NCBI GenBank assembly: GCA_937912225.1
Contig: CALDOJ010000036.1
Span: forward strand, 31,191-95,190
DNA from: Candidatus Woesearchaeota archaeon
GTDB lineage: Archaea; Nanobdellota; Nanobdellia; Woesearchaeales; GCA-2686295
Length of the DNA stretch: 64,000 nucleotides
Direction: 5' to 3'
Shown here: positions 10,585 through 28,111 of the stretch, piece by piece
Layout: every line of letters starts with the position of its first letter
Position numbering within the stretch: the first letter of the stretch is position 1
Position numbers and translations under genes: made by a program
Notes under the pieces: generated by a model
Told to the model about the DNA's origin: nothing
The model's database searches: none
Seen by the model: the letters and a program-made list of their open reading frames with translations, nothing else

Positions 10585-10643
10585 ATTTTAAGTTCTAACC
10601 TCTTTTTTTAATAGTTCAATACATTCCAATATTTAAATCCGGT

Positions 10644-12548: not shown

Positions 12549-12566
12549 TTATTAGCCTCCAGCTCT

Positions 12567-13355
12567 TTAAATCCATTTATTAGTTATTTCTTCTATTTGT
12601 TTTCCCCAAATCATCGTACCTAATACTTGATTAACTTCATTCATCAAAAGATTATTTTCTTTCATTGAAGCTAAGCCATAAAATTCTTGAGTAAAAGGAG
12701 TACCTACTACTTTTAATGAAGGATTATTTTTAACCAATTCTAAACCTGCAATGTAATCTATAATGATTGCACTTAAGTTATCATTCAATAATGCAACTGT
12801 TGCAAGATCATAATCTTCATAAGATAATACTAAAGATTCACCAGCATATTTTACTGCTTCATCATAACTAGTTGTATCCATTTGAACACCAACTTTTTTA
12901 CCAAGTAAATCTTCAGGAGTTAAAACTGATTCATCTTCAGCACTCACAACAATTACTTGACCGGCATTAAAATAAGGGATGGAAAATAACATTTCTTGAG
13001 ATCTTTCATCAGTAATAGTTATTGAAGAAATTGCAAAATCAACTTCTCCAGCTTTCACAGCAACGAATAATTCATCCCAACCATAATTAACAAATTCAAT
13101 TTCTAAATTTAAACGCAAAGCTATTTCTCTTGCAACATCAACGTCTATTCCTGCAAATTCACCATTTTCATCTAAGAACTCCATTGGTTCATAAGGAATA
13201 TTTGTACCAACAATTAACTTTCCTCGTTCTTGTACTTTTGAAAACGAATCATCACTTAATTGTTCATTTAACAATTCATCATTAGTTGATGTACAACTAA
13301 TAGTCATCAAAGACAATATTACTAGTACTAAAAAAAACGCTTGTTTATATTTCAT
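12567..13355 (-). CDS. Family-3 (polar amino-acid type) periplasmic solute-binding lipoprotein
   Basis: Signal peptide with lipobox-like …LMTISCTST. GKLIVGTNIPYEPMEF…GEFAGIDVDVAREIALRLNLEIEFV…FAISSITITDERSQ…FSIPYF is classic SBP_bac_3. Confidence 0.8.
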   Translation of the reverse strand: MKYKQAFFLVLVILSLMTISCTSTNDELLNEQLSDDSFSKVQERGKLIVGTNIPYEPMEFLDENGEFAGIDVDVAREIALRLNLEIEFVNYGWDELFVAVKAGEVDFAISSITITDERSQEMLFSIPYFNAGQVIVVSAEDESVLTPEDLLGKKVGVQMDTTSYDEAVKYAGESLVLSYEDYDLATVALLNDNLSAIIIDYIAGLELVKNNPSLKVVGTPFTQEFYGLASMKENNLLMNEVNQVLGTMIWGKQIEEITNKWI

Positions 13356-13368
13356 ATTTATTTCACCT

Positions 13369-16300
13369 TCATTGTTTTTTCTTTAATCGTTTAATTTCTT
13401 CTTTTAGTTTGATCATTTGTAATTCTCTATTAATTGCATACGTATGAAATTTTTCAAGTTCTTCAGTTCTTCTCTTCAATGCTTCATCAGATTTTTTTCT
13501 ATGAGTAACATCTCTAAGAGCTCCTGCTATTCCAATAATCTTCCCAGAAGAATTTTTAATAGGTGCTTCATCAATCTCAGCCCAAAATATTTCTCCATTT
13601 TTCTTCTTGAATTCTAAAATATAAGGTTTTTGAATTACTCCTGTCTTTAAAGCTTTCACAGTTAGTTTTAAACCTTCATCATTAATAGGGTTTTTTGTTG
13701 TTAAAGTAGTCCATTTAACCATCATCTCTTCTGGTGTGTAACCAAATACTCTTTTAGAAAGAGGATTCACATATGATAATTTATGATTTGTATCATGAAT
13801 GTAGAACATGTCATCACTATGTTCAATAATAGTTTTATATTTTTTCTCACTAGCTTCTAACAAGTTCTCTGCTTCTTTTTGATCAGTTATATCTCTAAAT
13901 ATTTCCATAATAACTTTTTTACCTTTAAGATTCATACCAACATGATTAATTTCATAAGTTCTATTCCCAGCAACCCCTGTTGTAATAATACTTCTTCGCT
14001 CACCTAATTTAATAGGTTTCTTCAATGGACAATCACCACATTGTTTTTTATTATCCTTATAAAGATTATAACATTTCTTTCCAATTGCTTTTTTTCCAAA
14101 AATGTTTAAGAAAAATTCATTCATGTAAAGAATATTTAAGTTTTCATCAACAATATCCATTCCTTCAGGTAAAGCCTTAAGAATATTTTCTGAAAACTCT
14201 TTTTCTTTTCGAAGTTCTCCTTCCGCAGTCTTTATATTTGTGATATCTGAAAGAACTCCCTCATAACCTTTCGCCACACCATTTTTATTATATACAATTC
14301 TAACACTATCTCGCACCCATTTTATATCTCCAGTCTTAGTTTTAAGTTTATACTCACTAAAAAAGTATTTATCTTTTTTCTTAAGAGCTTTATTTAAAAC
14401 AGGAGTTATACGCGTTACATCATCCTCAAACATTAGACTAACATACGATCTAACTTTGTTATTAATAACATCACTAACAGGAAAACCTGTAACTTCTTTA
14501 AATGCAAAACTTGCAAAAGAAAAAGTCCAATTCATATCACATTTGTAAACAACACCAGGAACAGTGTCTATCATATTTCTAAATTGTTCCTCGCTTTCTT
14601 TTAATTTTTCTTCTGCAAGTTTTTTATCTGTAATATCTTGAGTTGTTCCTATTAATTTAACTACAACTCCTTTCTCTTTTTTAGTTTTGCATCTTGCATT
14701 TACCCACACAATGTTCCCAGAAGGTTGAACTAAACGTATTTCTATATTATATCCAACACCTGTTTTAGTAGTATTCGCAACAGAATCATTAAATAAATTC
14801 CAATCCTTTGGATGAATATATTTCTTATGCTCTTTATAATTAAGTTCTCCTTTTTTTGGATCAATACCAAATATTTTAAATAATTGTTCAGACCAAATAG
14901 GTTGTGCAGTTTTAACATCAAAACTCCAACTTCCAATACTGGCTACTTCTTGTGCTTCCATTAATTGTTCTTCACTTACTATTAATTCTTCTTCTGCTTG
15001 TTTTCTTTCAGTAATATCTCTAATAACACCAACTACTTTAACTGGTTTATTATTCTCATAAATTAATTGTCCAGATTCTTCAGCAAAAATATATTTTCCA
15101 TTCTTAAGTTTAAGTCTGAATTCTGTTGTCGTAACTTTTCCCGTCTTCCAGAGCATTTCAAAATCTTTCATAACAGATTTCAAATCATCAGGATGAACAA
15201 AATTAGACAAAGGTTTTCCAAGAACTTCTTTTACTCTATAACCATATTTACCAATATTATCTGAAACAAAAATAATATTTCCATTAATATCATAACTATA
15301 AATTATGTCTGAGACTTTATTAACAAGAGTTTTGAATTTTTCTTCACTTTCTTTTAACTTTTTCTTTGAAAGTTCTCTGGAAGTAATATCTTGAAAAATA
15401 CAATGTGTTCTTTGAAACACACCATTTTCATCATATTCTGCAGTTCCATTATATTCAACAAGGATATGTTCGCCATTTTTTTGTTTCATAGAAAAGAGAA
15501 TATCACAAGCAGTACCTGTTTTTTTAAAATTAGAAAAATTTGATTTAAAATCATTTAATTTATCAGATGAAACAAACTCTGAAAAATTCTTACCAATAAC
15601 ATCTTGTTTTTTATATCCAAGAATGTTTAACCAAGCAGGATTAACGTCTAATAAATCCCCGTTTGAATCTAAAGATTGATATGGAACTGGAATTTTTTGG
15701 TAAACTGTTCTAAATTTATTCTCGCTTTCTATTAACTTAGTTTCAAAAAGCTTTTTTTCAGTTATGTCTTGAGTTATTCCAATTGCATTTATTGCTTTAC
15801 CTTTTTTATCAAATAATATCTTTGCTTTTTCTTTTACCCACTTTACTTTTCCTTTTACTATAATACGATGTTCAAGATTATAAACTCCAGACTTTAAACC
15901 TTCAGTCCACTTTTTAGCAACATATTCTTTGTCATCAGGATGAATGGTTGCTAAAAAACTTGATAAATTTAGAGAAGCTCCTTGTTTAACTCCAAATATC
16001 TTATAATTTTGTTCAGTCCATTCTAAAATGTCATTAACAATATCTAACTTCCAAGTTCCAATCAAACCAATTTCTTGCGATTTTAATAATTTTGATTCAC
16101 TTTCTTTTAAAGCTTCTTCTGAAAGTTTTTTTTCAGTAATATCAACTGCAGCAGCATAAATATATTTACCGGCATGCGTTGTTTGCCATTCTAAAGTTCT
16201 ATAAGAACCATTCTTATGTTTATATCGATTAACAAAATTAATTATAGAGTCTCCTTTTAGTTGTTTTTCTTTAAGCTCAACAGCTATTCTTTTTAAATCA

Positions 16301-17742
16301 TCAGGATGAGAAAGTTTAGTCCAACCAAGATCTAAAAATTCTTTTTTAGTATAACCCAACATAGATTTACAAGAATTATTAACATTAATTATAGTCCCAT
16401 CAACTTTTGAAATAGTCATTAAAACAGGCGCAGATTCAAAAATATCTTTTAATTTTTCTTCACTTTCTCTCAAATCTTCTTCTGCTTTCTTACGTTCTGT
16501 TGTTATAGTAAAATAAACTGATATGCCTTCTTTAGAAGGGTAAACTCTAACATCATACCAATTAATATAAGGTTTCTTTCCAAAAAAGATTTCAAAAGTA
16601 ACTAATTTATTATTTTTTAAAGCATAAGTATATTTTTCTTCAAATATACTTCCCTTAGCTTCTTTAAACACTTCATTAAATATTTGTTTGCCTAAAATAT
16701 CTTTGCTCTTTTTATTTAAAAGTTCTTCAGATTTTTTATTAAAATAAGTAAATCTAAGGTCTTGATTTAGTGTGAAAAATGCATCACTAATGCTTTCCAC
16801 AGTTGTTCTAAGTTTCTCTTCACTTTCAATTAATTTTTTTCCTATTCTATTTTTTCTCAGAAAATTGTTGAAAAGACCACTTATTGTTGAAATTTCGTCC
16901 TTAACTTTTTTATCTATTTTCGTCTCAGATTCAACAATATCCAAACCTATAAATCCTTTTAATTCATTGTTCTCTGTTAAAGGTATGGTGATTAAAGATT
17001 TGATTTTTTGTAATTGAAAATGTTTTTTTTCTAATTTTGCTTCAGAAGGTAATTTTGCTACACTTTCAACAACAAAAGGTTTTAGTTTTAGTATTTGTTT
17101 ATTAAACCAAGGTAATTCTTTTTTTAAATTAATATTTTTTAAATTATTTATTTCTGGCTTCACTCCTTTTCTACACCATTCATGAGTATTTGACATAAAC
17201 TTTCCTGAAACAGAAAAAATATAACTTCTATCTGCATGAAAATAATTTCCAATAGTTTCTAAAGCTTTATTTATAACATCATCAACTAATTCTTTATCAT
17301 AATCAATAAAAGACATAGAAAGTTCATTTAAGATATTCTCAAACAACAATTTTTGCTTTAAAAGTTTTTCTGCGTTTTTTTGTTCAGTAATATCTCTAAG
17401 AATTGTTTGTAAAGCAATTACTTTACCATTTTTCTTTATTGGTCGACTTTTATACTCCATAAAAAAGTTTCCTTTCGGAGCAATTATTTCAACAGAACCA
17501 TGAGTTGGTTTACCTTTAGCTAAGTCAAGCATTTCTTTTGTAAGCTGAAGAACATGTTTTTTTACAACCAATTTATACGTGGACTCACCAATTAAATCTG
17601 ATTCTTTAAAGCCATATTTATTAACTGCTTTATTTGCATAAAGAACTCTACCTTTTAGATCTATAAATAGAATTATATCTGTAAAGTTATCAAACAGGTC
17701 TGATTTAAAATTACTAGTACTAATCTCTGGTTTTTTACCCAT
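13369..17742 (-). CDS. Cytoplasmic multi-PAS/PAC (about 10 repeats) plus GAF sensor protein lacking a catalytic output domain
   Basis: 1457 aa. PAS/PAC signatures recur throughout (…DITE(Q/R)K…AEE.L…SEEK(L/F)…). A GAF-like block near residues 150-300. A Cys cluster CYNLYKDNKKQCGDCPLKK. Ends in …RRTEELEKFHTYAINRELQMIKLKEEIKRLKKKQ. The 13-nt gap to the SBP gene indicates co-transcription. Confidence 0.8.
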   Translation of the reverse strand: MGKKPEISTSNFKSDLFDNFTDIILFIDLKGRVLYANKAVNKYGFKESDLIGESTYKLVVKKHVLQLTKEMLDLAKGKPTHGSVEIIAPKGNFFMEYKSRPIKKNGKVIALQTILRDITEQKNAEKLLKQKLLFENILNELSMSFIDYDKELVDDVINKALETIGNYFHADRSYIFSVSGKFMSNTHEWCRKGVKPEINNLKNINLKKELPWFNKQILKLKPFVVESVAKLPSEAKLEKKHFQLQKIKSLITIPLTENNELKGFIGLDIVESETKIDKKVKDEISTISGLFNNFLRKNRIGKKLIESEEKLRTTVESISDAFFTLNQDLRFTYFNKKSEELLNKKSKDILGKQIFNEVFKEAKGSIFEEKYTYALKNNKLVTFEIFFGKKPYINWYDVRVYPSKEGISVYFTITTERKKAEEDLRESEEKLKDIFESAPVLMTISKVDGTIINVNNSCKSMLGYTKKEFLDLGWTKLSHPDDLKRIAVELKEKQLKGDSIINFVNRYKHKNGSYRTLEWQTTHAGKYIYAAAVDITEKKLSEEALKESESKLLKSQEIGLIGTWKLDIVNDILEWTEQNYKIFGVKQGASLNLSSFLATIHPDDKEYVAKKWTEGLKSGVYNLEHRIIVKGKVKWVKEKAKILFDKKGKAINAIGITQDITEKKLFETKLIESENKFRTVYQKIPVPYQSLDSNGDLLDVNPAWLNILGYKKQDVIGKNFSEFVSSDKLNDFKSNFSNFKKTGTACDILFSMKQKNGEHILVEYNGTAEYDENGVFQRTHCIFQDITSRELSKKKLKESEEKFKTLVNKVSDIIYSYDINGNIIFVSDNIGKYGYRVKEVLGKPLSNFVHPDDLKSVMKDFEMLWKTGKVTTTEFRLKLKNGKYIFAEESGQLIYENNKPVKVVGVIRDITERKQAEEELIVSEEQLMEAQEVASIGSWSFDVKTAQPIWSEQLFKIFGIDPKKGELNYKEHKKYIHPKDWNLFNDSVANTTKTGVGYNIEIRLVQPSGNIVWVNARCKTKKEKGVVVKLIGTTQDITDKKLAEEKLKESEEQFRNMIDTVPGVVYKCDMNWTFSFASFAFKEVTGFPVSDVINNKVRSYVSLMFEDDVTRITPVLNKALKKKDKYFFSEYKLKTKTGDIKWVRDSVRIVYNKNGVAKGYEGVLSDITNIKTAEGELRKEKEFSENILKALPEGMDIVDENLNILYMNEFFLNIFGKKAIGKKCYNLYKDNKKQCGDCPLKKPIKLGERRSIITTGVAGNRTYEINHVGMNLKGKKVIMEIFRDITDQKEAENLLEASEKKYKTIIEHSDDMFYIHDTNHKLSYVNPLSKRVFGYTPEEMMVKWTTLTTKNPINDEGLKLTVKALKTGVIQKPYILEFKKKNGEIFWAEIDEAPIKNSSGKIIGIAGALRDVTHRKKSDEALKRRTEELEKFHTYAINRELQMIKLKEEIKRLKKKQ

Positions 17743-17788
17743 TTCCTCCCTCTTAATAATTTTCTAGTTTGACAGTATAAATACTTTC

Positions 17789-18925
17789 TTATTCGTCGGA
17801 ACTTTTAAACATATCTTCTGCAGTTGTTGGTTTTGTTTCAGATTCTTGTTCTGTTTGTACAACTGGTTCAGCTTTAGCAGGTGCAGAGTCTATAGATGCA
17901 AGTTCTGCAGGTGCAGTTTGTTTAACAGGTTCTTCTTCAACAGACTTTTCTTCGCTTTCACCTTCAGCTTTTACTTCTTGCTTTTTTCCTCCAAACAAAC
18001 CAAAAAGTTTTTTCTTTTCTTCAGGCTTAGATTCTTCTTCACTGTTTCTTTCTTCAGCTTCTGATTCTTCCAAATTAACCTTATACTTCTTTTGTAATTT
18101 ATCAGTTAATTGTTTAAACATTAATTTTAAATCAGTTTTTGTATGTTTACTTCTTTCGTCTAATAATTTAATAACTGTGCCTGTATGTTTCTCAAAATCA
18201 TTAAATTTGTTAAGCAAATCAACGAATTCTTTTTTCTCAGCTTTCTGATCAGTTTGAACTCTCATTTTATCAAAATCAGCTTGCATTTTTTTGAACTCAC
18301 GATTTATATCTTTAACTTGTGAATCAAATTTATCAAATTCAGAAAACTTTTTCTCAACATCTAAAAAAATCGTTTCAACTCTATCAGCATGTCTTTCAAC
18401 AATTGACTCGACTTTTTTAAGATTAGCCAACTCATTTTTTATTTCTTCATGTAATTTTATTATTTGCTCAGTTCCTTTGTAAACATCCATTTGACCACGC
18501 ATACCTTTCAACTGAGACATGATATCCTTCATCAAAGATTCATTTCCTTCAATGTTGGCCTTAAGAGCTTCAATTTTCCCATCTGTTTTTCGAAGTTCAG
18601 TCATGAATACACTTGGTTGAACTGTTTCTACTTCATCAATGGCTTTTGTGGCTTTTACTTCTACTTTTGAAAAAGCTTGTTCTAAATCATTAAGCATACC
18701 TCTAATCTCACCCATTTGTTCAGTTACAATTCCAAATCTTTCAGTAGTGGATTTTCTTATCTCATTTAAAGAATCAATCTGACCTTTTATTTTAGCCAGT
18801 TCTATTTCTACTTGTCCACCAAGATTAGCACCTCTATTTTTAGGGGATGATTCTTCTATTTCCTGCTCAGCAGGATTCTCATCACCTTCTCCTATAGTAG
18901 GGCCTGATTTATTCCAAAAAGCCAT
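17789..18925 (-). CDS. Coiled-coil protein with acidic, low-complexity C-terminal tail (hypothetical)
   Basis: 378 aa. Heptad-rich central region (…LEQAFSKVEVKATKAIDEVE…LANLKKVESIVERHADRV…). Glu/Lys-rich tail …EESEAEERNSEEESKPEEKKKLFGLFGG…. Last gene of the seven-gene minus-strand operon. Confidence 0.55.
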   Translation of the reverse strand: MAFWNKSGPTIGEGDENPAEQEIEESSPKNRGANLGGQVEIELAKIKGQIDSLNEIRKSTTERFGIVTEQMGEIRGMLNDLEQAFSKVEVKATKAIDEVETVQPSVFMTELRKTDGKIEALKANIEGNESLMKDIMSQLKGMRGQMDVYKGTEQIIKLHEEIKNELANLKKVESIVERHADRVETIFLDVEKKFSEFDKFDSQVKDINREFKKMQADFDKMRVQTDQKAEKKEFVDLLNKFNDFEKHTGTVIKLLDERSKHTKTDLKLMFKQLTDKLQKKYKVNLEESEAEERNSEEESKPEEKKKLFGLFGGKKQEVKAEGESEEKSVEEEPVKQTAPAELASIDSAPAKAEPVVQTEQESETKPTTAEDMFKSSDE

Positions 18926-19775
18926 TATCTACCTCTTTTTTTTCTTTTAATATGTTTGACATTATTCTCTTATCCCTTATCCCTTTAATGTTTTTCGCTA
19001 ACTCAGGTTGATGAAAAACAAATTCAATCCACATTGAAAAATCATTATCATAGTTTCGTGTATGAAACTCAAAATCCTCAGGGTTCATAAAACTTAAAGC
19101 AGTTATTAAATCTTGTATTGATGTTAAAAGCTTCCCACTTTTCAAACGAAAGAATTTTTCAGGATCTATTACTAGTTCAAGTTTTGGTTCTGTAACTGTT
19201 TCATCAACTTCACTCTGAGGCTCTACTTCTAGCTTATCAGATTCTGTGGTTGTGACTGTCTCTTCAGAAGTATTTTCTGGCTTAACTGGTTCATTCTGAG
19301 GCTCTACTTCTGGTACATAAGAAGTTTCCTTCTGAACACTAGAACTTTCAGTTCTTTGTGTACTAGTAGCTTCGTTACTATTTTCTTCTTTTATATCTAA
19401 ATCTTCTCTGTTTGAATTATTCTCTTTCATTCCTTCTTCAAAAGCTTGAGCCTTTTCTTCATTTAACTTTTCTTTAATCTTTCTTTCAACTTCTGCTTTA
19501 ATATCTACCAAAGGTAATCTTGATTCTTCAATTAATTCCTCTTCTGAAAATTTTAAAATATTCTTAATAACTTCATAGTCTTCTTGTTTTCGAGTATACT
19601 GAGCCCATCGTAATTTTGAATCAAGACTTCTAAGATGAAAGTCTGCTATTGAAGGATTATGACCTTCTTTTCTTAATTCAGTTATTCTTGACTTTAACTC
19701 TCGAACATGACTTCTCAAATCCTCTGTTAAAATTTCATTTTCTTTATCCGAAACTAATTGTTTATTTTTACTCAT
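18909..19775 (-). CDS. Acidic linker protein with C-terminal copy of a conserved ~65-aa 'KNDF-W' module (hypothetical)
   Basis: C-terminal EKFFRLKSGKLLTSIQDLITALSFMNPEDFEFHTRNYDNDFSMWIEFVFHQPELAKNI, preceded by a long E/T/V-rich acidic low-complexity region. 4-nt overlap with the next gene. Confidence 0.6.
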   Translation of the reverse strand: MSKNKQLVSDKENEILTEDLRSHVRELKSRITELRKEGHNPSIADFHLRSLDSKLRWAQYTRKQEDYEVIKNILKFSEEELIEESRLPLVDIKAEVERKIKEKLNEEKAQAFEEGMKENNSNREDLDIKEENSNEATSTQRTESSSVQKETSYVPEVEPQNEPVKPENTSEETVTTTESDKLEVEPQSEVDETVTEPKLELVIDPEKFFRLKSGKLLTSIQDLITALSFMNPEDFEFHTRNYDNDFSMWIEFVFHQPELAKNIKGIRDKRIMSNILKEKKEVDNGFLE

Positions 19776-20602
19776 TTCAATTTCTCATTTACTTCATCAT
19801 TCAAGTCATTTATATCAGAATCAAGTGCTCTTACTTGTCCTTCTACAAAACTTGGTTTTCCAAAAAATAATTTTCCTAAAAATTTATTATTACTAATTTT
19901 TTCTTTTATTTTTTGAAAAAAGTTTTTCTTTGATTTTTCTTTTGAATGAACTGATTCTTTCTTTTTAACTTTCTTTTTCACTTCCTTTTTTACTTCTTCG
20001 TCTTCCTTCTTAATTTCTTCAGCTTCTTTTTCAACTTTTTTCTCAGATTTTTCCTCTCTTGCTTCTTTTGATTCATCAAGTGCTTTTTGAATTTCTACAA
20101 CTTCAGGACTATTGTCTTCTTCAATTGTTTTATTCAAATTAATTTCTGGCAATTTAGAATCAGAATCAACTTCTTTTTCTGGCTCAACCAAGGGTTTAAC
20201 TTCTTGTTCATCAGCTTCTTTATTTGAATCGTCAGAAGTTTCATCTTTGAACATATCATCAATTTTCTTATTAGATTCTTGTTCTGATTCAAAAGGTTCT
20301 TTCTTAACAGGTTCTGATTCTGTTTTCTGATTTTCATCCGGATTCTTAATTAAATCGTGAAAATAATCATCGATTAATTTAATCATAGAATCCTTATCTT
20401 TAGCTTTTTCTAAAACATCCGCCAGTTCATTATTTTTGAAAACACCTTTAACCCAAATAGCAAAATCATTCTTCTCTGAATTAACATGCAAAGCGAATTC
20501 TTCATCAGATCCTTTATCTAAAAAAACTCTAAATTCACCTATAGTTCTCAAAACTTCTCCATTGCCTAAATAAAAATATTCCTCTTGTTTCAAATTCCTC
20601 AC
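19772..20602 (-). CDS. Protein with N-terminal 'KNDF-W' module followed by a highly charged K/E-rich low-complexity tail (hypothetical)
   Basis: N-terminal EYFYLGNGEVLRTIGEFRVFLDKGSDEEFALHVNSEKNDFAIWVKGVFKNNELADVLEK, then a KE-rich disordered region. Confidence 0.6.
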   Translation of the reverse strand: MRNLKQEEYFYLGNGEVLRTIGEFRVFLDKGSDEEFALHVNSEKNDFAIWVKGVFKNNELADVLEKAKDKDSMIKLIDDYFHDLIKNPDENQKTESEPVKKEPFESEQESNKKIDDMFKDETSDDSNKEADEQEVKPLVEPEKEVDSDSKLPEINLNKTIEEDNSPEVVEIQKALDESKEAREEKSEKKVEKEAEEIKKEDEEVKKEVKKKVKKKESVHSKEKSKKNFFQKIKEKISNNKFLGKLFFGKPSFVEGQVRALDSDINDLNDEVNEKLK

Positions 20603-20639
20603 CTCTTATGTGGATTTATTATTATTTGTTGTTTTCTAA

Positions 20640-22829
20640 TTAACCCTCCTGTAAAACATTAATTAATTCATCTTTTGAGTTTGCTGTTTGCATTCTATCG
20701 GCTAATTGGTCGTTGTGAAATACTCCTCGAACCCAACTAGCAAAATCGTTTTTATCATTAGACACATATTGTTTAAAATCATCATCATTAGTTTCTCTTA
20801 AATACTCGACTAATTCAAGTACGGATTTTATTTCTTTACCGCTTTGTAATCTAAAATATTGATCGGATGAAATGTCTTTTTTAACAACAATTTTTTCTAA
20901 ATCAGCATCTAATTCCTCTTCTTCCTTTTTCTTTTCAGTTCGAGATTCAGAATTTTCAACAAGTTTAGTTTCTGTTTCTAAATGTTCTTCTAATTCTTTT
21001 TTATCTGAATTTTCCAATTGAACAGGCTCTTCTGCTTCTTCTTTTACAGCAGTTTCTGGTTTAACTTCTGATTCAGAATCATCATCAGCCATCGCAGCAA
21101 ACGCTTTTTCTTGTTCTGTTATAGGCTCTTTCTTTTCAGGTTCAACAGCTTCTGCAAGTTTTGCCTCCTCTTCCTTTTCCTCTTTTTCTTCTACAGCTTC
21201 AACTGCTTCTTTATCAGATGTTGAGTCAAACCACTTTTCAGATTCTAATAATTTTTTCTCTTCATCAGTTAACTCTGGAAGTTTCTGTTTTTTACTCCTT
21301 AAATCAATCAAATCTAACATTTGTTGTTTATCTGGTTTAACCATCATATGCTGTGCTAATTCTTTATCTCCAACAGCATCTTTAACCCAATCAGCAAACT
21401 CATTCTTTTCTTTATTTACATGCTGATCATAATCACTTTGTTTCATCGCAGATAACTCATCATATAATGCTTTCAAACTAATAACTAACATACCATTTAC
21501 TAAACTTAGAATTTTATCAGGCGACACTTCTTTTCTGAAAAGATCAACTTCAACTGTTTCACCATCAGCGCTGCCACTAGCAGCTTCAACTGCTTCAGCT
21601 TCTTCTCTTGATTGTTTTGCTGCGTTAATAGATGCTTTAAAGTCATCTTCAGATACAAGTTTCTTTTCTTTCTTCTTAGGAACTTTTCCAATTTTTTCCC
21701 AATTTTTCTTAACTCTAGGTCTTAATCCTTCTAAATATACTTCAACCATGTTAAAATTTCCAACTTTTACTTTATCTAAAGATAATTTTAGTTCCAATTT
21801 CATATCAAATACATCAATTTCTAACTCTTCTAATTGTTCAAGTTCATACACTAATTGATCAATTTCATCATTGTATTTGTTATACTTTTCAAGTTCTTCA
21901 TCTGTTAATCTTTGTACTGAATGAAGGATTGGTCTGAATGTTACGAAGTATGGTTGACCTCTATTATATGACGCGTTTTGAACCATTCCACTTCCAACAC
22001 TGGCTTTAACTAATGATTTTAAAACACTATCACCATACTTAGTTTTAATTCTATCTAAGTCTCCTTCATCTCTAGTTCTCATTTGAACTTCTGTGTTAAT
22101 GTTCGCTTTAATCTGACCTACGAAGTCGGCCAAAACCTGAGATACTAACATAATCCCTATTCCCCACTTACGAAACTCTCTACATCCTCTTTCAATCTGT
22201 ACGAATCCATCACCACTACCTCCAAACTTAGGTAGAATTCTGTGAATCTCATCATAAATAATCATGAGTTTTAATGGCTCACTTTCAGTAGGTCTTTCAT
22301 CAAAAATTTGTCTAATAGTATTAGCTACAACTAAATCAATTCCTTTCGGATCCAACTTATTCATAGCATAAATTTGAATTTCGCCAGGTTTTGCATTCTT
22401 CTGAATTTCAATTACTTCTCGAGGATTAGTTATTTGTTTAACATTTCCATTGAATGCTTTTGCATCTTTAGGTTTCATTCCAAATCCAGGATAATACTTC
22501 AACATTCCTTTTTCTTTACATGGACGCAACATTCCGCTCCATTGAGCTGTAGGGTCAAAGGCAATTACCGCTACATCTTTTAACAAACATTCTTCTATTA
22601 TTACTTGAGCTGAAATAGATTTTCCTCCACCAGTTGACCCTGCTACAATTGAATGAATCTTTAACTGGTCTAAATCAAAATAAGTTTTATGGTCTGTTTC
22701 AGCAATTTTTCCCCACCAACCACTTCTAGGTCCTGGTTTTGGTAACTGAGTATAATCAACTTTAAGATGGAACCTTTTATTGGAATCCATTTTTTTCCAG
22801 ATTATAAAAGCTATTAATGCAATTGTCAA
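20640..22829 (-). CDS. Membrane-anchored HerA/FtsK/VirB4-like P-loop ATPase fused to two 'KNDF-W' modules
   Basis: N-terminal TM helix (MTIALIAFIIW). Walker A AGSTGGGKS. HerA-type Walker B LMIIYDEIHRILP. FDPTAQW resembles the HerA/DUF87 block after the P-loop. The C-terminal half has two copies of the module (…KEKNEFADWVKDAV… and …NDKNDFASWVRGVFHNDQLADRM) separated by acidic linkers. Confidence 0.7.
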   Translation of the reverse strand: MTIALIAFIIWKKMDSNKRFHLKVDYTQLPKPGPRSGWWGKIAETDHKTYFDLDQLKIHSIVAGSTGGGKSISAQVIIEECLLKDVAVIAFDPTAQWSGMLRPCKEKGMLKYYPGFGMKPKDAKAFNGNVKQITNPREVIEIQKNAKPGEIQIYAMNKLDPKGIDLVVANTIRQIFDERPTESEPLKLMIIYDEIHRILPKFGGSGDGFVQIERGCREFRKWGIGIMLVSQVLADFVGQIKANINTEVQMRTRDEGDLDRIKTKYGDSVLKSLVKASVGSGMVQNASYNRGQPYFVTFRPILHSVQRLTDEELEKYNKYNDEIDQLVYELEQLEELEIDVFDMKLELKLSLDKVKVGNFNMVEVYLEGLRPRVKKNWEKIGKVPKKKEKKLVSEDDFKASINAAKQSREEAEAVEAASGSADGETVEVDLFRKEVSPDKILSLVNGMLVISLKALYDELSAMKQSDYDQHVNKEKNEFADWVKDAVGDKELAQHMMVKPDKQQMLDLIDLRSKKQKLPELTDEEKKLLESEKWFDSTSDKEAVEAVEEKEEKEEEAKLAEAVEPEKKEPITEQEKAFAAMADDDSESEVKPETAVKEEAEEPVQLENSDKKELEEHLETETKLVENSESRTEKKKEEEELDADLEKIVVKKDISSDQYFRLQSGKEIKSVLELVEYLRETNDDDFKQYVSNDKNDFASWVRGVFHNDQLADRMQTANSKDELINVLQEG

Positions 22830-22850
22830 TAAAGAACCAATTATTAATCC

Positions 22851-24614
22851 CTATTGCCAGAAAAATAATCCAAAGAAATACAACTGCCAAAATGGTGTTA
22901 CTACTTCAAAAATTTCACTTGTTCCAGCGCTAAATCCCAAATAATTAGCAGTTACTCTAATAATATAAACTCCTCTGGGTGCATCTTTAGGAATCTTAAC
23001 TGTTTTTAATAATGAAAAAGATGTTTTCAATAACACATTAGTACTATAAGTCCATAAAGTTGTGTTACCAGTTTCATCTTGAATAGTATAAAATAATGAA
23101 ACAGGATATTCTTGATCAGATAATAAATTTTTCAAATCTGTTTTGAATTGTAAATCTTCATTTGGATGAACTTGTTTCTTAGAAGAATCTAATTCCATTA
23201 ACAAAGCTTGTACTGGAAGTTGATTTGCAGATATTAATTCAACAGTTAATGGAATAGATGCATTAAAATCTCCTGTTATTTCTATAGTTCCATTATAAGT
23301 TCCTAATTCTCCTCTTCCAAAAATAGTTGGAGTAATACTACCCCTTTCATTTGGAGCAACTAATAATTTATTCTTATCCAACTCAACTAAATTAGCAATA
23401 TCACCTGTTACTTTGAAAAATGCCTGGGTTGTTCCTTCTTTATAACTATAAACAACTATTTCTTCTTGTAAGAAGTTTCCTAATCTAAGTTTTCTATTAA
23501 TAGTATTAAGTGAAATAACTATATCTGTTCCTTCAACTCTTTTTGGTTGTTCTACTTGTGGTACGAGTGGCGCTTCACCAGGACCAACATCATCACCAGG
23601 ACCAACATCTCTACCAGGACCAATACCAGTAAAATCGTTAGGTGTTACTGCTTGAACCAATATGATATTATGAATTGTTGTTTGATTCTTTACAATTGAA
23701 ACATTGTTTGCATATACATCATAACCTGATTTTATTGCAAAAATAGTATATTGTCCTTCAGGAGCTGTAATATTATAAAAACCAAACGTGTCAGATGCAT
23801 CATTATAATTCGAAATATGTATAATTACATCAGATATTGGAACTCCTGCTTCAGTTGTTACAATTCCTGCAATATTTCCTGGATTTGGTAAATCACCTTC
23901 TCCTTCAGCACATATATCATATGGATCTGGAAAGAAATAATATCTTTGCTCTGTAGCATTTGGAATTGGTAATATCATTTGATAATTTAACTGTCTTCCG
24001 TTAAAACCATTAGTCCAATTTCCGAGTTTTGGTGCTACAAATATTAATTCTCCATTACCATCTTGAAGAACACCCAAAGTGAAATTTTCAATACTTCCAT
24101 CCCCTCCATTAAGTGTTGTGGCTGGAATAGTTATTGGAGTATTACCTATTTCAATTGTAATATTATCTTTAAAAGTATTTGTTCCTGATAACTTTGCAGT
24201 GAATGAATCATATTGGTCCATTCCTAAAAAAGTATCTAGCACCGTTAAATTAGCTGGCTGAATATTTACAAAATCTAATAATTGAGGCATAACTGTACTT
24301 GCATACACTTCATGATCAATATCTGTTTCTAAACAATCAAATAATAAATTTGCTTCTAAAGTTTCCAATCCTTCTAAATCATAAAATGCTTCATTTTGAA
24401 ATCCTGGAACTCTTACTGCATAACCATATACTCCTGACCATAAAAAAGCAGGTAAACTCATATCAATATTTACTTCATAAATTACTCCTCCTTTCCCTGA
24501 AAAAGTATTAGTTGCCCAACCAATAAACTTGCTTGCAAAAACCAATCCGAATATAGCAAGAGCTACTAATAAAACTAATAATACTGTTTGTGCAGCTTTC
24601 TCTACATGTTTCAT
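22851..24614 (-). CDS. Secreted/membrane-anchored cell-surface protein with CarboxypepD_reg-like beta-sandwich domain and GPG repeats
   Basis: N-terminal signal-anchor (TVLLVLLVALAIFGLVFA). IAGIVTTEAGVPISDVIIHISNYNDASDTFGFYNITAPEGQYTIFAIKSGYD is a carboxypeptidase-regulatory-like fold. GPGRDVGPGDDVGPGEAP repeats. Hydrophobic C-terminus FWQLYFFGLFFWQ. Several N-glycosylation sequons. Confidence 0.6.
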   Translation of the reverse strand: MKHVEKAAQTVLLVLLVALAIFGLVFASKFIGWATNTFSGKGGVIYEVNIDMSLPAFLWSGVYGYAVRVPGFQNEAFYDLEGLETLEANLLFDCLETDIDHEVYASTVMPQLLDFVNIQPANLTVLDTFLGMDQYDSFTAKLSGTNTFKDNITIEIGNTPITIPATTLNGGDGSIENFTLGVLQDGNGELIFVAPKLGNWTNGFNGRQLNYQMILPIPNATEQRYYFFPDPYDICAEGEGDLPNPGNIAGIVTTEAGVPISDVIIHISNYNDASDTFGFYNITAPEGQYTIFAIKSGYDVYANNVSIVKNQTTIHNIILVQAVTPNDFTGIGPGRDVGPGDDVGPGEAPLVPQVEQPKRVEGTDIVISLNTINRKLRLGNFLQEEIVVYSYKEGTTQAFFKVTGDIANLVELDKNKLLVAPNERGSITPTIFGRGELGTYNGTIEITGDFNASIPLTVELISANQLPVQALLMELDSSKKQVHPNEDLQFKTDLKNLLSDQEYPVSLFYTIQDETGNTTLWTYSTNVLLKTSFSLLKTVKIPKDAPRGVYIIRVTANYLGFSAGTSEIFEVVTPFWQLYFFGLFFWQ

Positions 24615-27553
24615 GATGCAATCCTCATTTGTAAAGTTTTTATTTTTTCAAACAACTCGGTTTTATAATCTTCATCTAATCTCTTATACACTTCTTCTAG
24701 CTGATGATAATAGTATCTTGCTTTTCCAATATTATCAGCTTTTATATTATTCTCAATATCTGAAACTAATTTCTGTGAATAACCATGATCCAACTTAGTA
24801 CATAAATTCCTAATTTTTTGATAAACTTCATTTTTTGAAGGAGTAGATAATTTTTCATAATACAATTTAATCTCTCTATAAATAAAATGAGCTTTATCAA
24901 GGTCATGAACTTCTAAATTATCAAGAGCATCATTTATCAATAAGTTAATAGTATGAATTTTCTTATCGCCAAATAAAACATAGTAAAAGAATCTCATCTT
25001 ATCTATTCTAATATGACTATGCCCTGCATATACTAATACTAAAACCATTATTAAAACTATCAAATAACCTTTTTTATCCATATTAACATTAAAGTCAAAT
25101 ATGGAATTTCCAGTTATAGAAGTTACCGCTTTAGTATATGAATCTTCAAACAAGACTGTTTGTGCTTTATCAATGTTCTCCAAATCTATTTGTTCATCAA
25201 AATAATAAATTATTTTTTGAGGGTTATCAAATTCAATTAATGGATCTTTCTCCAAAATTTTATGATTTGTTATTATTGTTAAATCATCGGTTGTCTCTGC
25301 TAATTCTTTTGGTATAGATTCTACAACTCTTAATTTATATGTGCTATTCACATATTTTAATTCTTTAACCACTAAAGTAATAGTTTTCTTTGTTCCATCA
25401 AAGTATTCTAATTCAACATTTCTGGCAGTTGTTGATATAGTTGCTTTTGATTGAGTTAATTTACTTGCTTCAAAAAATTTCTCTTTATCTAAATATTTTT
25501 TTATAGTTGAATATTTATCAGATACTTCTTTTAATTCAGGATCTCGAATATATTTAATAAACGCTTTATTTTCTAACACATTCACATTAACAATTATAGA
25601 ATTATAAGTATCAGATATTTTAGTTTCTAATGTTTGTATTTTATCTTCTTTTTCTTTTTCAGATAAAACATTATTGTAAGTTGCATCATTTATATCTCTA
25701 TAAGCTCTTTGTATTGTTACAATTGCACTTTTGATATTTTTCTCTATATCTAATACATCTATTACCCGTCGTTCATGAAGTCCTTTAGTTGATAAAGTAT
25801 CAATTATTGCGTATAATTCATCAGTAAATTCTGTTTCTGAAAAAGTTGTTTTTACGTCTATTACTTCATCAATTATTTTAAAAGTTCTTTCTTCTGTTGC
25901 TTTTGAATTCTTATCCGAATCTTCACATTCAATTTTCCATTTATAATCTTTATAATCTAATCCTGTCAATGAAAATATTTGTTCTGTGTTATCTGAAACT
26001 ATTTTTGTTCCTTTCTTTGTATACCAACTTTCATCCTTCTCTGCAGTATACAACACACAAGTTGTATCTCCTTGATCAGATACTTTAAATTTAACATCTA
26101 TACTTTTCGAATTAAATTCTTGTTTATCTGCAGGTGAAATAAGTTCAATACTTGGCGCAGTTACATCTTTTCCTTCTATTTCTGCAAGGTAAGTAATATT
26201 TTCCCTTAACCAGATTTCATCATAGAGAACTTCATAATTAGATTTTAAAACCGTTAATCTGTAAGTGCCTCTTGAAATATAAAATGTGTATTGACCTTTA
26301 CTATTTGTTATTCCTTCTCTATTTGCTAGTTCGATTCTTGCTCCAGATATAACACTTCCAGAATTTATATCTTTAACAGTTACAGCCAATTCCAATACAT
26401 TCTTAACAGTTATTGTTGTATTAAGAGACTTAGAATTTCCTTCTTCGTCAGTAACTGTTAACTTTTCAATGTATGAACCAGAATTTTCATAAGACATATT
26501 TATAGTATCATTAGTTTTAGTTGTTCCATCGCTTAAAGTCCAAAGATAAGTATATTCACCAATTCCGCCATTTACATAAGCTTCTAGTTCTGTTGGTTCA
26601 TCAACATCAACAGATTTATCTCCAACAACAGAAATTGTTATACTATTTTCAACTTCAAAACTTATTACATCAGTTAAAGTTGTATTTTGATATTCTAACT
26701 CTGTATTTGCAGCATAAGTTCCTACTTCTGTTGTGTAAGTCATTGATTCTGTTCTTGGAAATGTTCCATTTGTTATGGTTATTGTTTCTCCTAATGTGAA
26801 CCATCCTCCGCTTGAAGTTCCTATTTCAATTGTCATATTTGAACCATTTAATGCATTTATTGTGAAAGTTCCTGCTTCTCCTAAGCTGTAAGTTTCTTTA
26901 TTCAAACTAATGTTCAAGAATGGTGTTTCAATTTCTTCTTCAACGGTTTCATTCTCTATTGTAAATATTCTATTGCCACTAATATTTGCATTCCCAACAC
27001 TATCTTGACAACTTATATTCCAGTAATGCATTCCACTATCTGCAGAAATATTAACTATTTTTGAAGTTCCATTAATTGCAGTTATTGCTTGTATTGCATC
27101 ATCTAAAGTTAATATACAATTCATGCTTGTTGCAAAGTTATCTGTTGCTACGAAGGTTACATTCGTTAAATTAGTTAAGTTTGCATTATTGATTGGATTC
27201 TCTAAAACAATAATTGGTGCTGAGAGATCAATATTTATTGTTCGCTCAATAATACTTTCGCTGTTGTTCTCATCTGAGCAGTTAATATACCATTCATGAA
27301 CTCCTTCGGTCAAGGTTTCAGTAAATGTATTACTGCTTTCTGCTGATTTACTTTGTTCTTCTATTTGGTCTATAAATAAACTACAAGTGGTAGAATTAGT
27401 GTAATTAGTGAGTGTGAATGTAAAGTTAACATTTGAAGTATTATACACTGCATTATCTACAGGTACAATATCAGACATTGTTGAAGAAATTATTTGAAGA
27501 CTTAAAACTAACATGACCATCAACATAATTAATTTTGCTGATTTACTTCTCAT
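24611..27553 (-). CDS. Large type-I membrane surface glycoprotein (Ig/PKD-like and CarboxypepD_reg-like domains) with helical-repeat cytoplasmic tail
   Basis: Signal peptide (LIMLMVMLVLSLQIIS). PKD-like (…TVTDEEGNSKSLNTTITV). CarboxypepD_reg-like (AVTVKDINSGSVISGARIELANREGITNSKGQYTFYISRGTYRL). TM helix LIVLIMVLVLVYAG near residue 835. ~130-aa helical tail with two Y-rich repeats. 4-nt overlap with the downstream gene. Confidence 0.65.
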   Translation of the reverse strand: MRSKSAKLIMLMVMLVLSLQIISSTMSDIVPVDNAVYNTSNVNFTFTLTNYTNSTTCSLFIDQIEEQSKSAESSNTFTETLTEGVHEWYINCSDENNSESIIERTINIDLSAPIIVLENPINNANLTNLTNVTFVATDNFATSMNCILTLDDAIQAITAINGTSKIVNISADSGMHYWNISCQDSVGNANISGNRIFTIENETVEEEIETPFLNISLNKETYSLGEAGTFTINALNGSNMTIEIGTSSGGWFTLGETITITNGTFPRTESMTYTTEVGTYAANTELEYQNTTLTDVISFEVENSITISVVGDKSVDVDEPTELEAYVNGGIGEYTYLWTLSDGTTKTNDTINMSYENSGSYIEKLTVTDEEGNSKSLNTTITVKNVLELAVTVKDINSGSVISGARIELANREGITNSKGQYTFYISRGTYRLTVLKSNYEVLYDEIWLRENITYLAEIEGKDVTAPSIELISPADKQEFNSKSIDVKFKVSDQGDTTCVLYTAEKDESWYTKKGTKIVSDNTEQIFSLTGLDYKDYKWKIECEDSDKNSKATEERTFKIIDEVIDVKTTFSETEFTDELYAIIDTLSTKGLHERRVIDVLDIEKNIKSAIVTIQRAYRDINDATYNNVLSEKEKEDKIQTLETKISDTYNSIIVNVNVLENKAFIKYIRDPELKEVSDKYSTIKKYLDKEKFFEASKLTQSKATISTTARNVELEYFDGTKKTITLVVKELKYVNSTYKLRVVESIPKELAETTDDLTIITNHKILEKDPLIEFDNPQKIIYYFDEQIDLENIDKAQTVLFEDSYTKAVTSITGNSIFDFNVNMDKKGYLIVLIMVLVLVYAGHSHIRIDKMRFFYYVLFGDKKIHTINLLINDALDNLEVHDLDKAHFIYREIKLYYEKLSTPSKNEVYQKIRNLCTKLDHGYSQKLVSDIENNIKADNIGKARYYYHQLEEVYKRLDEDYKTELFEKIKTLQMRIAS

Positions 27554-27785
27554 TTTCTAGTCTCCCAATTAGCTTTTTTAATTCTTCTATCATCTGTTGA
27601 TTAGTTTGTTCTTGCTTTAATTTTGCAATTTTAGAAGTAACTGGTTCAGTAAAACTGAAGCATTTTGATCTAACAACAGAACGTATTTCTTCACTTAAAT
27701 CCATATAGTGATTTTTATCTGCTAGAATTCTTAGTTCTCTAACTAGTGTTGAGGGCATTCGTACGCTTACAACTGTATCTGTCAT
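27543..27785 (-). CDS. Ribbon-helix-helix (CopG/Arc/NikR-like) transcriptional regulator, first gene of the seven-gene operon
   Basis: 80 aa. TVVSVRMPSTLVRELRILADKNHYMDLSEEIRSVV matches the RHH beta-strand/helix-A/helix-B pattern, followed by a helical dimerisation tail. Overlaps the next gene by 11 nt. Confidence 0.6.
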   Translation of the reverse strand: MTDTVVSVRMPSTLVRELRILADKNHYMDLSEEIRSVVRSKCFSFTEPVTSKIAKLKQEQTNQQMIEELKKLIGRLENEK

Positions 27786-27840
27786 CGTTGTTATTTGTTC
27801 TCTAGCACATACTGTCTTGAAAATTCTCTTATAGCCTCAG

Positions 27841-28023
27841 ATCTAGAACTAAACACATTTTTTTTTACAAGGGTATCTAGAATTACAATAGTGTCGTCTG
27901 GTAATCTCACGTTTACTACTTCTATGTTTTTCTGAGGTTTCTGCATGGTCACGTATGTTACTTGTAGTTTATTTGTATGTTATCTGTAAGTGTCTCTGTA
28001 GACCGAAATGACACTTGTATGAC
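27841..28023. promoter_or_regulatory. Divergent control region holding two ATCTAGAA palindromes and three phased GTATGTTA/TTGTATG direct repeats (candidate RHH operator)
   Basis: ATCTAGAA at 27841-27848 and 27875-27882. GTATGTTA at 27954-27961 and 27975-27982, and GTATGAC at 28016-28022 (spacings of 21 and 41 bp, close to whole helical turns). A TATATAAA TATA box at 28043-28050 serves the plus-strand gene. Confidence 0.4.
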
Positions 28024-28111
28024 AATTAACTGACATTAGTAGTATATAAATCTTTTGATTTCGTCTTTTGAAAGGAGAAACTATAAAAAACCAACAATAT
28101 TTCAAACAAAA

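Follow-up and report, generated by a model that had tools for sequence, protein, structure and literature searches.

What kind of machine is encoded where a HerA/FtsK-type ATPase stands in a tightly packed row of genes with very large surface proteins? The question is raised by a 64,000-nt stretch of a Candidatus Woesearchaeota genome (assembly GCA_937912225.1, contig CALDOJ010000036.1, positions 31,191 to 95,190 of the forward strand), which is called the window here, position 1 being its first letter. The DNA of the window is archaeal, chromosomal and low in GC (~29%); among its genes are those for TopoVI-B, GatD/E, Cdc48 and PPDK, and positions 17789-27946 hold a continuous minus-strand series of open reading frames (ORFs), g0 to g7, to which the ATPase belongs. 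This series is very probably a conserved, uncharacterised, envelope-associated operon with a HerA-type motor, and the motor gene of this strain has almost certainly been split by a recent nonsense mutation. Taken together with the translocase mechanism proposed below, the whole statement is tentative and may well fail in one of its parts.

In a preliminary description of the window, g3 and g4 were listed as a 587-aa surface protein and an ATPase anchored by a transmembrane (TM) segment. The two ORFs share one frame and are parted by a lone TAG (22853-22851), across which the translation runs ...GLFFWQ, stop, GLIIGSLLTIALIAFIIWKK... (in longer form ...VVTPFWQLYFFGLFFWQ, stop, GLIIGSLLTIALIAFIIWKKMDSNKRF...). 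In the closest homologues both halves lie in a single protein of ~1250 aa. A single open frame covers 1150-1600 codons in about 70 relatives, with no split in any of them, and at ~70 long-form loci it runs without a stop through 590-785 codons upstream of the ATPase. A sister strain (locus L092, GCA_041294365.1), with 99.5-99.9% DNA identity to the window over 11.6 kb, has G for A at window position 22852, so that the codon reads TGG (Trp) and an intact 1312-aa protein (P0402) is encoded. Because the relatives are fused and the sister strain has TGG, g3 and g4 are read as one gene cut by a nonsense mutation, and the 587-aa ORF is the N-terminal half of the motor gene rather than a surface protein of its own. 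The TAG was found, with 100% identity to the window, in four assemblies from four different samples, and is therefore not a random assembly error.

It is improbable that the TAG is harmless, whether read through, recoded, or marking the border of a natural two-subunit protein. Such a reading would accord with g3 and g4 being otherwise intact and full length, and with the predominance of the TAG allele, which was counted in 13-16 contigs against one with TGG; but the mutation is one transition away from the TGG of a strain with 99.9% identity, so that there was too little time for further decay. Recoding of TAG as the default reading was rejected, since TAG closes 7 of the 48 genes here, and the six others in the window include GatD, directly before GatE. 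Also against a harmless TAG stand the ~70 unsplit relatives and the position of the cut inside the TM helix, which leaves neither product with a complete anchor there. No Shine-Dalgarno-like sequence was seen before the possible restart codons TTG 22829 and ATG 22790.

The ATPase ORF retains only ~11 hydrophobic residues of the TM segment, so the ATPase as encoded here is not TM-anchored, and the anchor given to it in the preliminary description belongs to the ancestral form only. These few residues and the lack of a Shine-Dalgarno-like sequence together indicate a motor that is uncoupled from its anchor and ectodomain, or not made. As encoded, the motor would be soluble or unmade, and the copy of this strain is therefore probably non-functional or uncoupled. 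In public annotations g4 starts at Met14 and is 716 aa long. The occurrence of an intact (TGG) and a broken (TAG) allele in strains that are otherwise 99.9% identical amounts to a natural experiment.

Two in-frame length differences also separate the sister strain from the window: an indel of 36 nt within the GPGxD repeat of the ectodomain (23588-23623) and, in the sister strain, 96 additional nt in the acidic g6 linker (~19434; 320 against 288 aa). Low-complexity linkers thus vary in length between strains.

Rebuilt across the stop, the motor begins with a hydrophobic segment (residues 10-28) and a ~560-aa ectodomain. The TM helix comes next and is joined by ~25 linker residues to the ATPase core, which is followed by a helical bundle and then by modules 1 and 2, with a linker of ~140 acidic, disordered residues between the two modules. 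The ectodomain has two conserved cysteines, a CarboxypepD_reg domain (E 2.5e-6 in g3, down to 6.9e-11 in relatives), the GPGxD repeat, immunoglobulin (Ig)-like domains and 11 N-X-S/T sequons. In g4 as it stands, the TM remnant is followed by a HerA-like P-loop ATPase (~36-305), the helical bundle (306-420), the two modules and acidic linkers. The motifs AGSTGGGKS and IIYDEIH, on which the assignment of a P-loop ATPase had been based, are present, and the HerA/FtsK-type core holds. It has Walker A, Walker B with a DE pair, a sensor-1 glutamine, one or more arginine fingers and a RecA-like fold of the HerA/FtsK/VirB4 type. The core is a HerA/FtsK-superfamily ATPase, membrane-anchored in its ancestral form; judged from sequence, it is a HerA-clade ATPase tethered by one TM helix to a large ectodomain and predicted to be catalytically competent. 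The fold resembles HerA, VirB4 and TrwB, and the closest solved relatives mostly act on DNA. Measured by the frequency of the commonest residue per alignment column, conservation reaches 0.76 for the ATPase core, against 0.67 for the bundle, 0.65 for the juxtamembrane linker and 0.55 for module 1.

The coordinates of all features are collected in Table 1. The preliminary description had given seven minus-strand ORFs with overlaps or gaps of at most 37 nt and a 46-nt gap before the following PAS gene. These coordinates were confirmed (successive junctions from g1 through g7: -11, -4, 21, 37, -4 and -17 nt), and the operon-like unit stands. Its listed composition does not, because two of the seven are halves of one gene and a 51-aa ribbon-helix-helix (RHH) gene had been missed; the operon has seven genes, namely two for RHH proteins, g2, one split motor gene, g5, g6 and g7.

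Table 1. Features of the motor operon and of the region upstream of it, in window positions
Feature	Position	Strand	Description	Family match
g0	27791-27946	minus	51-aa ribbon-helix-helix protein, heads the operon	Pfam RHH_1
g1	27543-27785	minus	80 aa, second RHH-type protein, with C-terminal helix	
g2	24611-27553	minus	980-aa bitopic surface protein	
g3	22851-24614	minus	587 aa, N-terminal half of the broken motor gene	
In-frame TAG	22851-22853	minus	TGG-to-TAG nonsense mutation at the start of the TM helix	
g4	20640-22829	minus	729-aa ORF, C-terminal half of the motor gene	
Module copy 1	21285-21536	minus	ATPase residues 432-515	DUF5752, E 1.4e-4
Module copy 2	20643-20882	minus	ATPase residues 650-729	
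g5	19772-20602	minus	276 aa; N-terminal module, acidic linker, basic/amphipathic C-terminus	
g6	18909-19775	minus	288 aa; N-terminal helical region, acidic linker, C-terminal module	
g7	17789-18925	minus	378-aa coiled-coil protein	
Divergent intergenic region upstream of g0	27947-28111		candidate promoter and RHH operator	

The ATPase family gave 696 matches among the scored candidates, and at least 574 stretches in species-representative genomes were confirmed as belonging to it; the trustworthy record titles among those stretches name Woesearchaeota, Nanoarchaeota or Nanoarchaeia. The proteins of the window were searched by tblastn against 86 related loci. The ectodomain half was recovered in all 86, g2 in 75, g1 in 61, g7 in 59 (40-64% identity), and the g5 and g6 queries in 59-63, with order and strand constant in all related loci with matches. 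Conservation of the neighbourhood, on which the preliminary description had made its proposal depend, is thus borne out: the order is kept across many Woesearchaeota and Nanoarchaeota genomes, recurring in 50-70 of them with overlapping start and stop codons. The canonical order is g0 (45-94 aa), g1 (~90 aa), g2 (~1000 aa), the fused motor (~1150-1600 aa), one or two module proteins and g7 (~350-400 aa), and the median gaps at the first three junctions, from the ORF-level analysis, are -4, -8 and -4 nt.

Blind (unsupervised) clustering of the neighbouring ORFs returned the same families, in 78, 72, 61, 53 and 26 loci. Beyond the operon it found only lineage synteny (adenylate kinase, a ~160-aa protein and TruD) and a ~197-aa protein (20 loci). 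In ~20 loci the operon stands in a housekeeping synteny, next to TruD, adenylate kinase and a protein of 149-168 aa, which speaks against a mobile origin. Short-form motor paralogues (~770 aa; ectodomain of ~270 aa, a single module) are accompanied by g0-g1-g2-like partners of their own, and the short and long systems are adjacent in some genomes. A second ATPase paralogue was sought in the window and none was found.

Many species-representative metagenome-assembled genomes (MAGs) titled 'uncultured Methanosarcinales archaeon' carry the operon at 45-64% identity (L017, L018, L029, L032, L040 and others), and one operon-bearing record is titled 'Candidatus Saccharibacteria'; such titles look taxonomically unreliable. 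In relatives, the ~197-aa protein and giant surface proteins of 4000-7000 aa with CARDB, Big_13 and Laminin_G domains follow the operon (L005:16199-16792 and 16789-23786; L007:16704-17276 and 17311-23753; L011:1-7778 and 20152-22295); both are absent from the window, in which the PAS and kinase genes take that place. Genes for SpoIIM-like (PF01944) membrane proteins adjoin short-form motor paralogues (L009:14653-15456; L011:12328-13173). A role in the remodelling of archaeal membranes has been proposed for this family (PMC5898192).

Downstream, the operon had been thought to continue into a signalling operon of PAS, solute-binding protein (SBP) and histidine kinase genes. This could not be upheld. 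The PAS, SBP and kinase genes were not found after g7 in relatives, where unrelated genes stand instead, and the 46-nt gap between g7 and the PAS gene contains TTTATA ~35 nt upstream of the PAS start codon; for both reasons these genes were not counted in the system. The PAS gene (13369-17742) encodes a 1457-aa protein with about ten PAS domains, a weak GAF match and no recognisable output domain, and is followed (5840-13355) by genes for an SBP_bac_3 protein, a double NMT1 protein, a dCache-HAMP protein and a dCache histidine kinase.

The partner surface protein g2 had been described as a type-I glycoprotein with PKD and CarboxypepD_reg domains and a cytoplasmic helical tail. The PKD domain (PKD_4, E 1.5e-9, in the ectodomain), the sequons, the TM helix and the tail were all recovered; CarboxypepD_reg was not significant in the 980-aa protein. 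By hydropathy profile, g2 has a signal or anchor segment at residues 8-26, a TM helix at 830-848 and a 132-aa helical cytoplasmic tail, and its 24 N-X-S/T sequons all lie on the extracellular side. An orthologue is encoded upstream of the ATPase in 72-75 loci (median gap -4 nt). Orthologues were recovered by tblastn on related loci, as a word-based homology search gave only 7 matches because g2 evolves fast. The ectodomain is only 22-39% identical among relatives, unlike the tail (residues 849-980, window 24611-25009), which is conserved and forms an independent domain of ~130 aa (E to 1e-40, 83 ORFs). Tails of this type recur at the C-termini of some long ATPase paralogues and in small stand-alone neighbouring proteins (L072:5061-9926; L081:9887-14293; L011:18578-19039; L089:11536-11961). 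Similarity between the g2 tail and the N-terminal region of g6 was not significant.

At the head of the operon, g0 is a member of Pfam RHH_1 (E 8.7e-7, 29.1 bits, cut-off 20.5), and orthologues of 45-94 aa occupy the equivalent position in 58 related loci (median gap to g1, -4 nt). The 80-aa protein that the preliminary description had named as the RHH regulator, g1, is indeed of RHH type, although it is neither the only one nor the first gene of the operon. In the window, the protein stays below the RHH_1 threshold (E 0.033, 14.6 bits, cut-off 20.5), but 11 of 16 orthologues match the family (best E 3.9e-8). Its gene is present at 58-61 related loci, at a median distance of -8 nt from g2, and the CdrS model matches the protein weakly (E 0.013, 15.5 bits, cut-off 100).

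Upstream of g0, the region 27947-28111 contains a TTTATATA element at 28043-28050 and two TAACATAC repeats (27975-27982 and 27953-27960, 22 nt apart), which may represent a bidirectional promoter and RHH operator. In AT-rich DNA such elements could also occur by chance.

The module of ~80 aa that the preliminary description had left unrecognised is present in the four copies claimed for it, two in the ATPase and one each in g5 and g6, with cross-matches of E 1e-5 to 1e-14. It is the repeat unit of Pfam DUF5752, whose structure is known from OrfY (PDB 4CSO), and belongs to that family. OrfY of Thermoproteus tenax is a stand-alone two-repeat protein that its depositors labelled a 'transcription factor', and no function of it could be verified in the literature searched. 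Here, by contrast, the module is a single mobile repeat placed on a HerA-like ATPase or on acidic adaptors and, elsewhere, on KaiC-like ATPases. Two or three copies of a DUF5752-like module are fused to KaiC-like (PF06745) ATPases in P0273, P0281, P0306 and P0329, of which P0273 is annotated as an archaeal MAG protein. The module thus recurs on ring ATPases of two families, the HerA and the KaiC types, which gives an orphan fold a context as a mobile module on such rings.

Both g5 and g6 are acidic and mostly disordered, with one module each, and module-bearing proteins lie between the ATPase and g7 in ~60 loci. The C-terminus of g5 is a basic amphipathic stretch (FLGKLFFGK), and the N-terminal helical region of g6 (~18-102) is 34-42% identical to equivalently placed ORFs of relatives. 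The start of g5 is probably TTG 20593 (273 aa, as in public annotations) and not GTG 20602, which is overlapped by a Shine-Dalgarno-like GGTGAGG.

The last protein, g7, had been called a long coiled coil, and in the AlphaFold2 model it is all-helical, with two long helices and no tertiary fold (predicted TM-score 0.23). It has a helical core (residues 36-281) and an acidic disordered tail with a second KKKLFGLFGGKK motif. Across the family the amphipathic N-terminus is conserved (consensus MGLFxKKK), 27 positions of the core are invariant, and a second motif resembling KKGLFGLFKK is often present in the acidic tail; the 173 matches of the family are confined to the same lineage. The gene lies downstream on the same strand in 53-59 loci (40-64% identity). 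Foldseek gave no match for g7, the PDB profile search was empty of hits to a defined family, and the Pfam, NCBIfam and PDB profile searches returned generic coiled-coil noise only. An assignment to ESCRT-III, PspA or Vipp1, suggested by the MGLF N-terminus, was rejected for want of profile or fold support; in 25 g7 homologues, neither Snf7 nor PspA_IM30 is among the Pfam matches listed, which cover the 25 commonest of 89 families.

What the assembled machine would do is a matter of proposal. The motor is, on balance, probably a polymer translocase, and DNA is slightly favoured as its substrate, an assignment that we hold tentatively and with considerable doubt. The motor would form a ring, taken to be hexameric as in its family, and this ring would lie directly under the membrane, because only ~25 residues separate the TM helix from the first ATPase strand. 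Six ectodomains together with g2 would form an extracellular crown or assembly tied to the ring, and the shared modules, the g2 tail and g7 would build a sub-membrane scaffold. The scaffold is proposed because the module is shared by the ATPase, g5 and g6, because the g2 tail recurs, and because amphipathic GLF motifs occur in g7 and g5. ATP hydrolysis would then thread a polymer at or through the envelope, DNA being favoured in the manner of FtsK, TraB or a type IV coupling protein (T4CP), and the two RHH proteins would act as DNA adaptors or autoregulators. The preference for DNA follows from the nearest solved relatives, which are mostly DNA motors, and from the translational coupling of two proteins of the DNA-binding RHH fold to the structural genes. 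In conjugation, RHH accessory proteins are coupled to coupling proteins.

Several observations weigh against this proposal. No conserved polytopic membrane protein was found in the operon, and the TM helix is poorly conserved (commonest-residue frequency ~0.2-0.5 per column), so that a channel is not evident and the helix may be a simple anchor. Nuclease, relaxase, pilin and single-stranded DNA-binding protein are absent from the operon. By a count from the sequence, acidic residues predominate in the OrfY-like modules, and this does not point to DNA binding. The paralogous motors each have their own surface partner, for which action on that partner would account no less well than DNA transport. 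The RHH proteins may be simple autoregulators, and hexamer formation is assumed by analogy.

Two other readings of the motor draw on the same observations. It is possible, if unlikely, that the motor acts on proteins, as VirB4 or EssC/EccC of type VII secretion systems (T7SS) do, and that it exports, inserts, assembles or retracts g2 or the nearby giant adhesin-like proteins, for example in attachment of a DPANN cell to its host. The pairing of each paralogous motor with a surface partner speaks for such a machine, but g2 and the motor ectodomain both have an ordinary N-terminal signal or anchor, suggestive of Sec-dependent export, neither a WXG100-like or pilin-like small substrate nor a channel component was detected, and the closest fold relatives are DNA motors. 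Somewhat less likely still is a device for division, segregation or envelope mechanotransmission, in which the TM helix is only an anchor, as is the N-terminal domain of FtsK, and the ring works on chromosomal DNA at the division site or on a g7 filament, or moves the ectodomain in an FtsEX-like way; g7 and g5 would be membrane-binding scaffolds and the RHH proteins CdrS-like division regulators. The poorly conserved TM helix and the missing channel protein speak for this reading, as do a near-universal, chromosomal operon in housekeeping synteny, the conserved amphipathic termini and long coiled coil of g7, the weak match of g1 to CdrS (E 0.013) and the SpoIIM-like membrane-remodelling genes beside paralogues in L009 and L011. 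However, ftsZ, sepF, cdv and SMC genes are absent from the conserved neighbours, the CdrS match lies far below its cut-off (15.5 against 100 bits), no similarity of g7 to known division proteins, ESCRT-III or PspA could be detected, and neither a large glycosylated ectodomain nor multiple paralogues would be expected of an FtsK analogue.

That the operon is instead a mobile-element or anti-phage defence module, or encodes a conjugative or viral DNA-packaging or transfer ATPase, is very improbable. PADLOC gave weak matches (mad8, E 3.4e-13, and HerA models), PHROGs gave a weak terminase match (E 5.5e-6), and HerA of defence complexes is among the top fold matches. The operon nevertheless lacks an effector (Sir2, nuclease or DUF4297), keeps its chromosomal position beside TruD and adenylate kinase in ~20 genomes, and has a membrane and ectodomain architecture unlike that of known HerA defence systems. 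No relatives were found among 2.9 million viral contigs, on which ground a viral or mobile origin was rejected, and the window shows neither an integrase nor a shift in composition.

Returning to the translocase that we prefer, one further step would be to see in the operon an unrecognised trans-envelope machine of Woesearchaeota and Nanoarchaeota, with a glycoprotein crown and a HerA-type ring in one polypeptide, which, together with its cognate surface partner, contacts a host cell and moves DNA or protein between the two cells. We regard this as speculative and rather improbable. If it is true, the paralogous motor and partner pairs would give different specificities, and the TAG/TGG polymorphism would provide a natural knockout with which the machine could be tested. 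Woesearchaeota and their DPANN relatives are abundant, mostly uncultured archaea with small genomes; the operon is a concrete candidate for their envelope machinery, combining a motor of the DNA-pump type with large surface proteins.

For comparison with known systems, the preliminary description had held that the cluster matches none that can be named, and this was confirmed: the defining features of Ced/Ted, conjugative type IV secretion systems (T4SS), T7SS and HerA-NurA are lacking. No paper describing the operon or the ATPase family was found in the literature searched, and the family is not mentioned in PMC9258230 or PMC6393860. A secretion system that Makarova et al. 2015 had predicted (arCOG01314, MoxR AAA+, vWA; PMC5898192) was considered and set aside as a different system.

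Archaeal and bacterial HerA, the motor of HerA-NurA DNA end resection (PDB 4D2I, 9X1L, 7F6D), is only 13-21% identical to the window motor. HerA proper has an N-terminal HAS-barrel, which the window motor lacks: in the model, only ~45 residues with two short strands lead from the TM remnant to Walker A; in full-length relatives the N-terminus is the ectodomain and TM helix, unlike HerA. NurA, Mre11 and Rad50 domains are absent from the operon proteins and from the recurrent neighbour families (78 loci). The membrane tether, the ~560-aa ectodomain and the C-terminal OrfY-like modules further separate this system from HerA. HerA-based anti-phage systems (Sir2-HerA/Nezha, DUF4297-HerA) are likewise not matched, as the weak PADLOC hits fall on the ATPase alone and no effector accompanies it.

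As T4CP/FtsK-like pumps, TrwB/VirD4, TcpA, FtsK/SpoIIIE and Streptomyces TraB were compared. The window protein scores 17.2 bits against Pfam FtsK_SpoIIIE, below the cut-off of 24. FtsK has a polytopic N-domain (about 4 TM) and a C-terminal winged-helix gamma domain, whereas the window motor has at most two hydrophobic segments and ends in OrfY-like domains, with no winged helix-turn-helix detected. The two-segment topology of T4CP-like proteins is analogous, but the loop here is a ~560-aa glycosylated ectodomain and not a short one. TrwB_AAD_bind matched weakly in 14 of 25 family members and not in the window protein. Genes for a VirB6-like protein, a relaxase and a second ATPase, expected of a T4SS, are absent from the operon and its conserved neighbours, as are oriT-type partners from the operon, which is chromosomal and lineage-wide and not plasmid-borne.

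The Ced/Ted systems, which import DNA into archaea, consist of a VirB4-like ATPase (CedB/TedB), a VirB6-like channel of 6-7 TM helices (CedA/TedA) and a VirB2-like 2-TM pilin (CedA1/TedC) (PMC9905601). In the window operon, g0, g1, g5, g6 and g7 have no TM helix, and g2 and g3/g4 are bitopic with large ectodomains; NCBIfam CedD scored 22.8 bits against a cut-off of 600, over the P-loop only. Ced/Ted are found in Crenarchaeota, the window operon in DPANN. EssC/EccC of T7SS have three tandem FtsK-like ATPase domains and FHA/DUF domains, whereas the window motor has a single P-loop domain and neither of the latter. Their partner EsaA is a large membrane protein, that of the window motor has a single TM helix and Ig-like domains, and WXG100 substrates were not found in the operon (best score E 0.74, in g7). 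Such an architecture is not seen in characterised secretion, conjugation, DNA-uptake or division systems, and the operon is novel in that it places a membrane motor of the FtsK-HerA superfamily in a new architecture and among a new set of partners.

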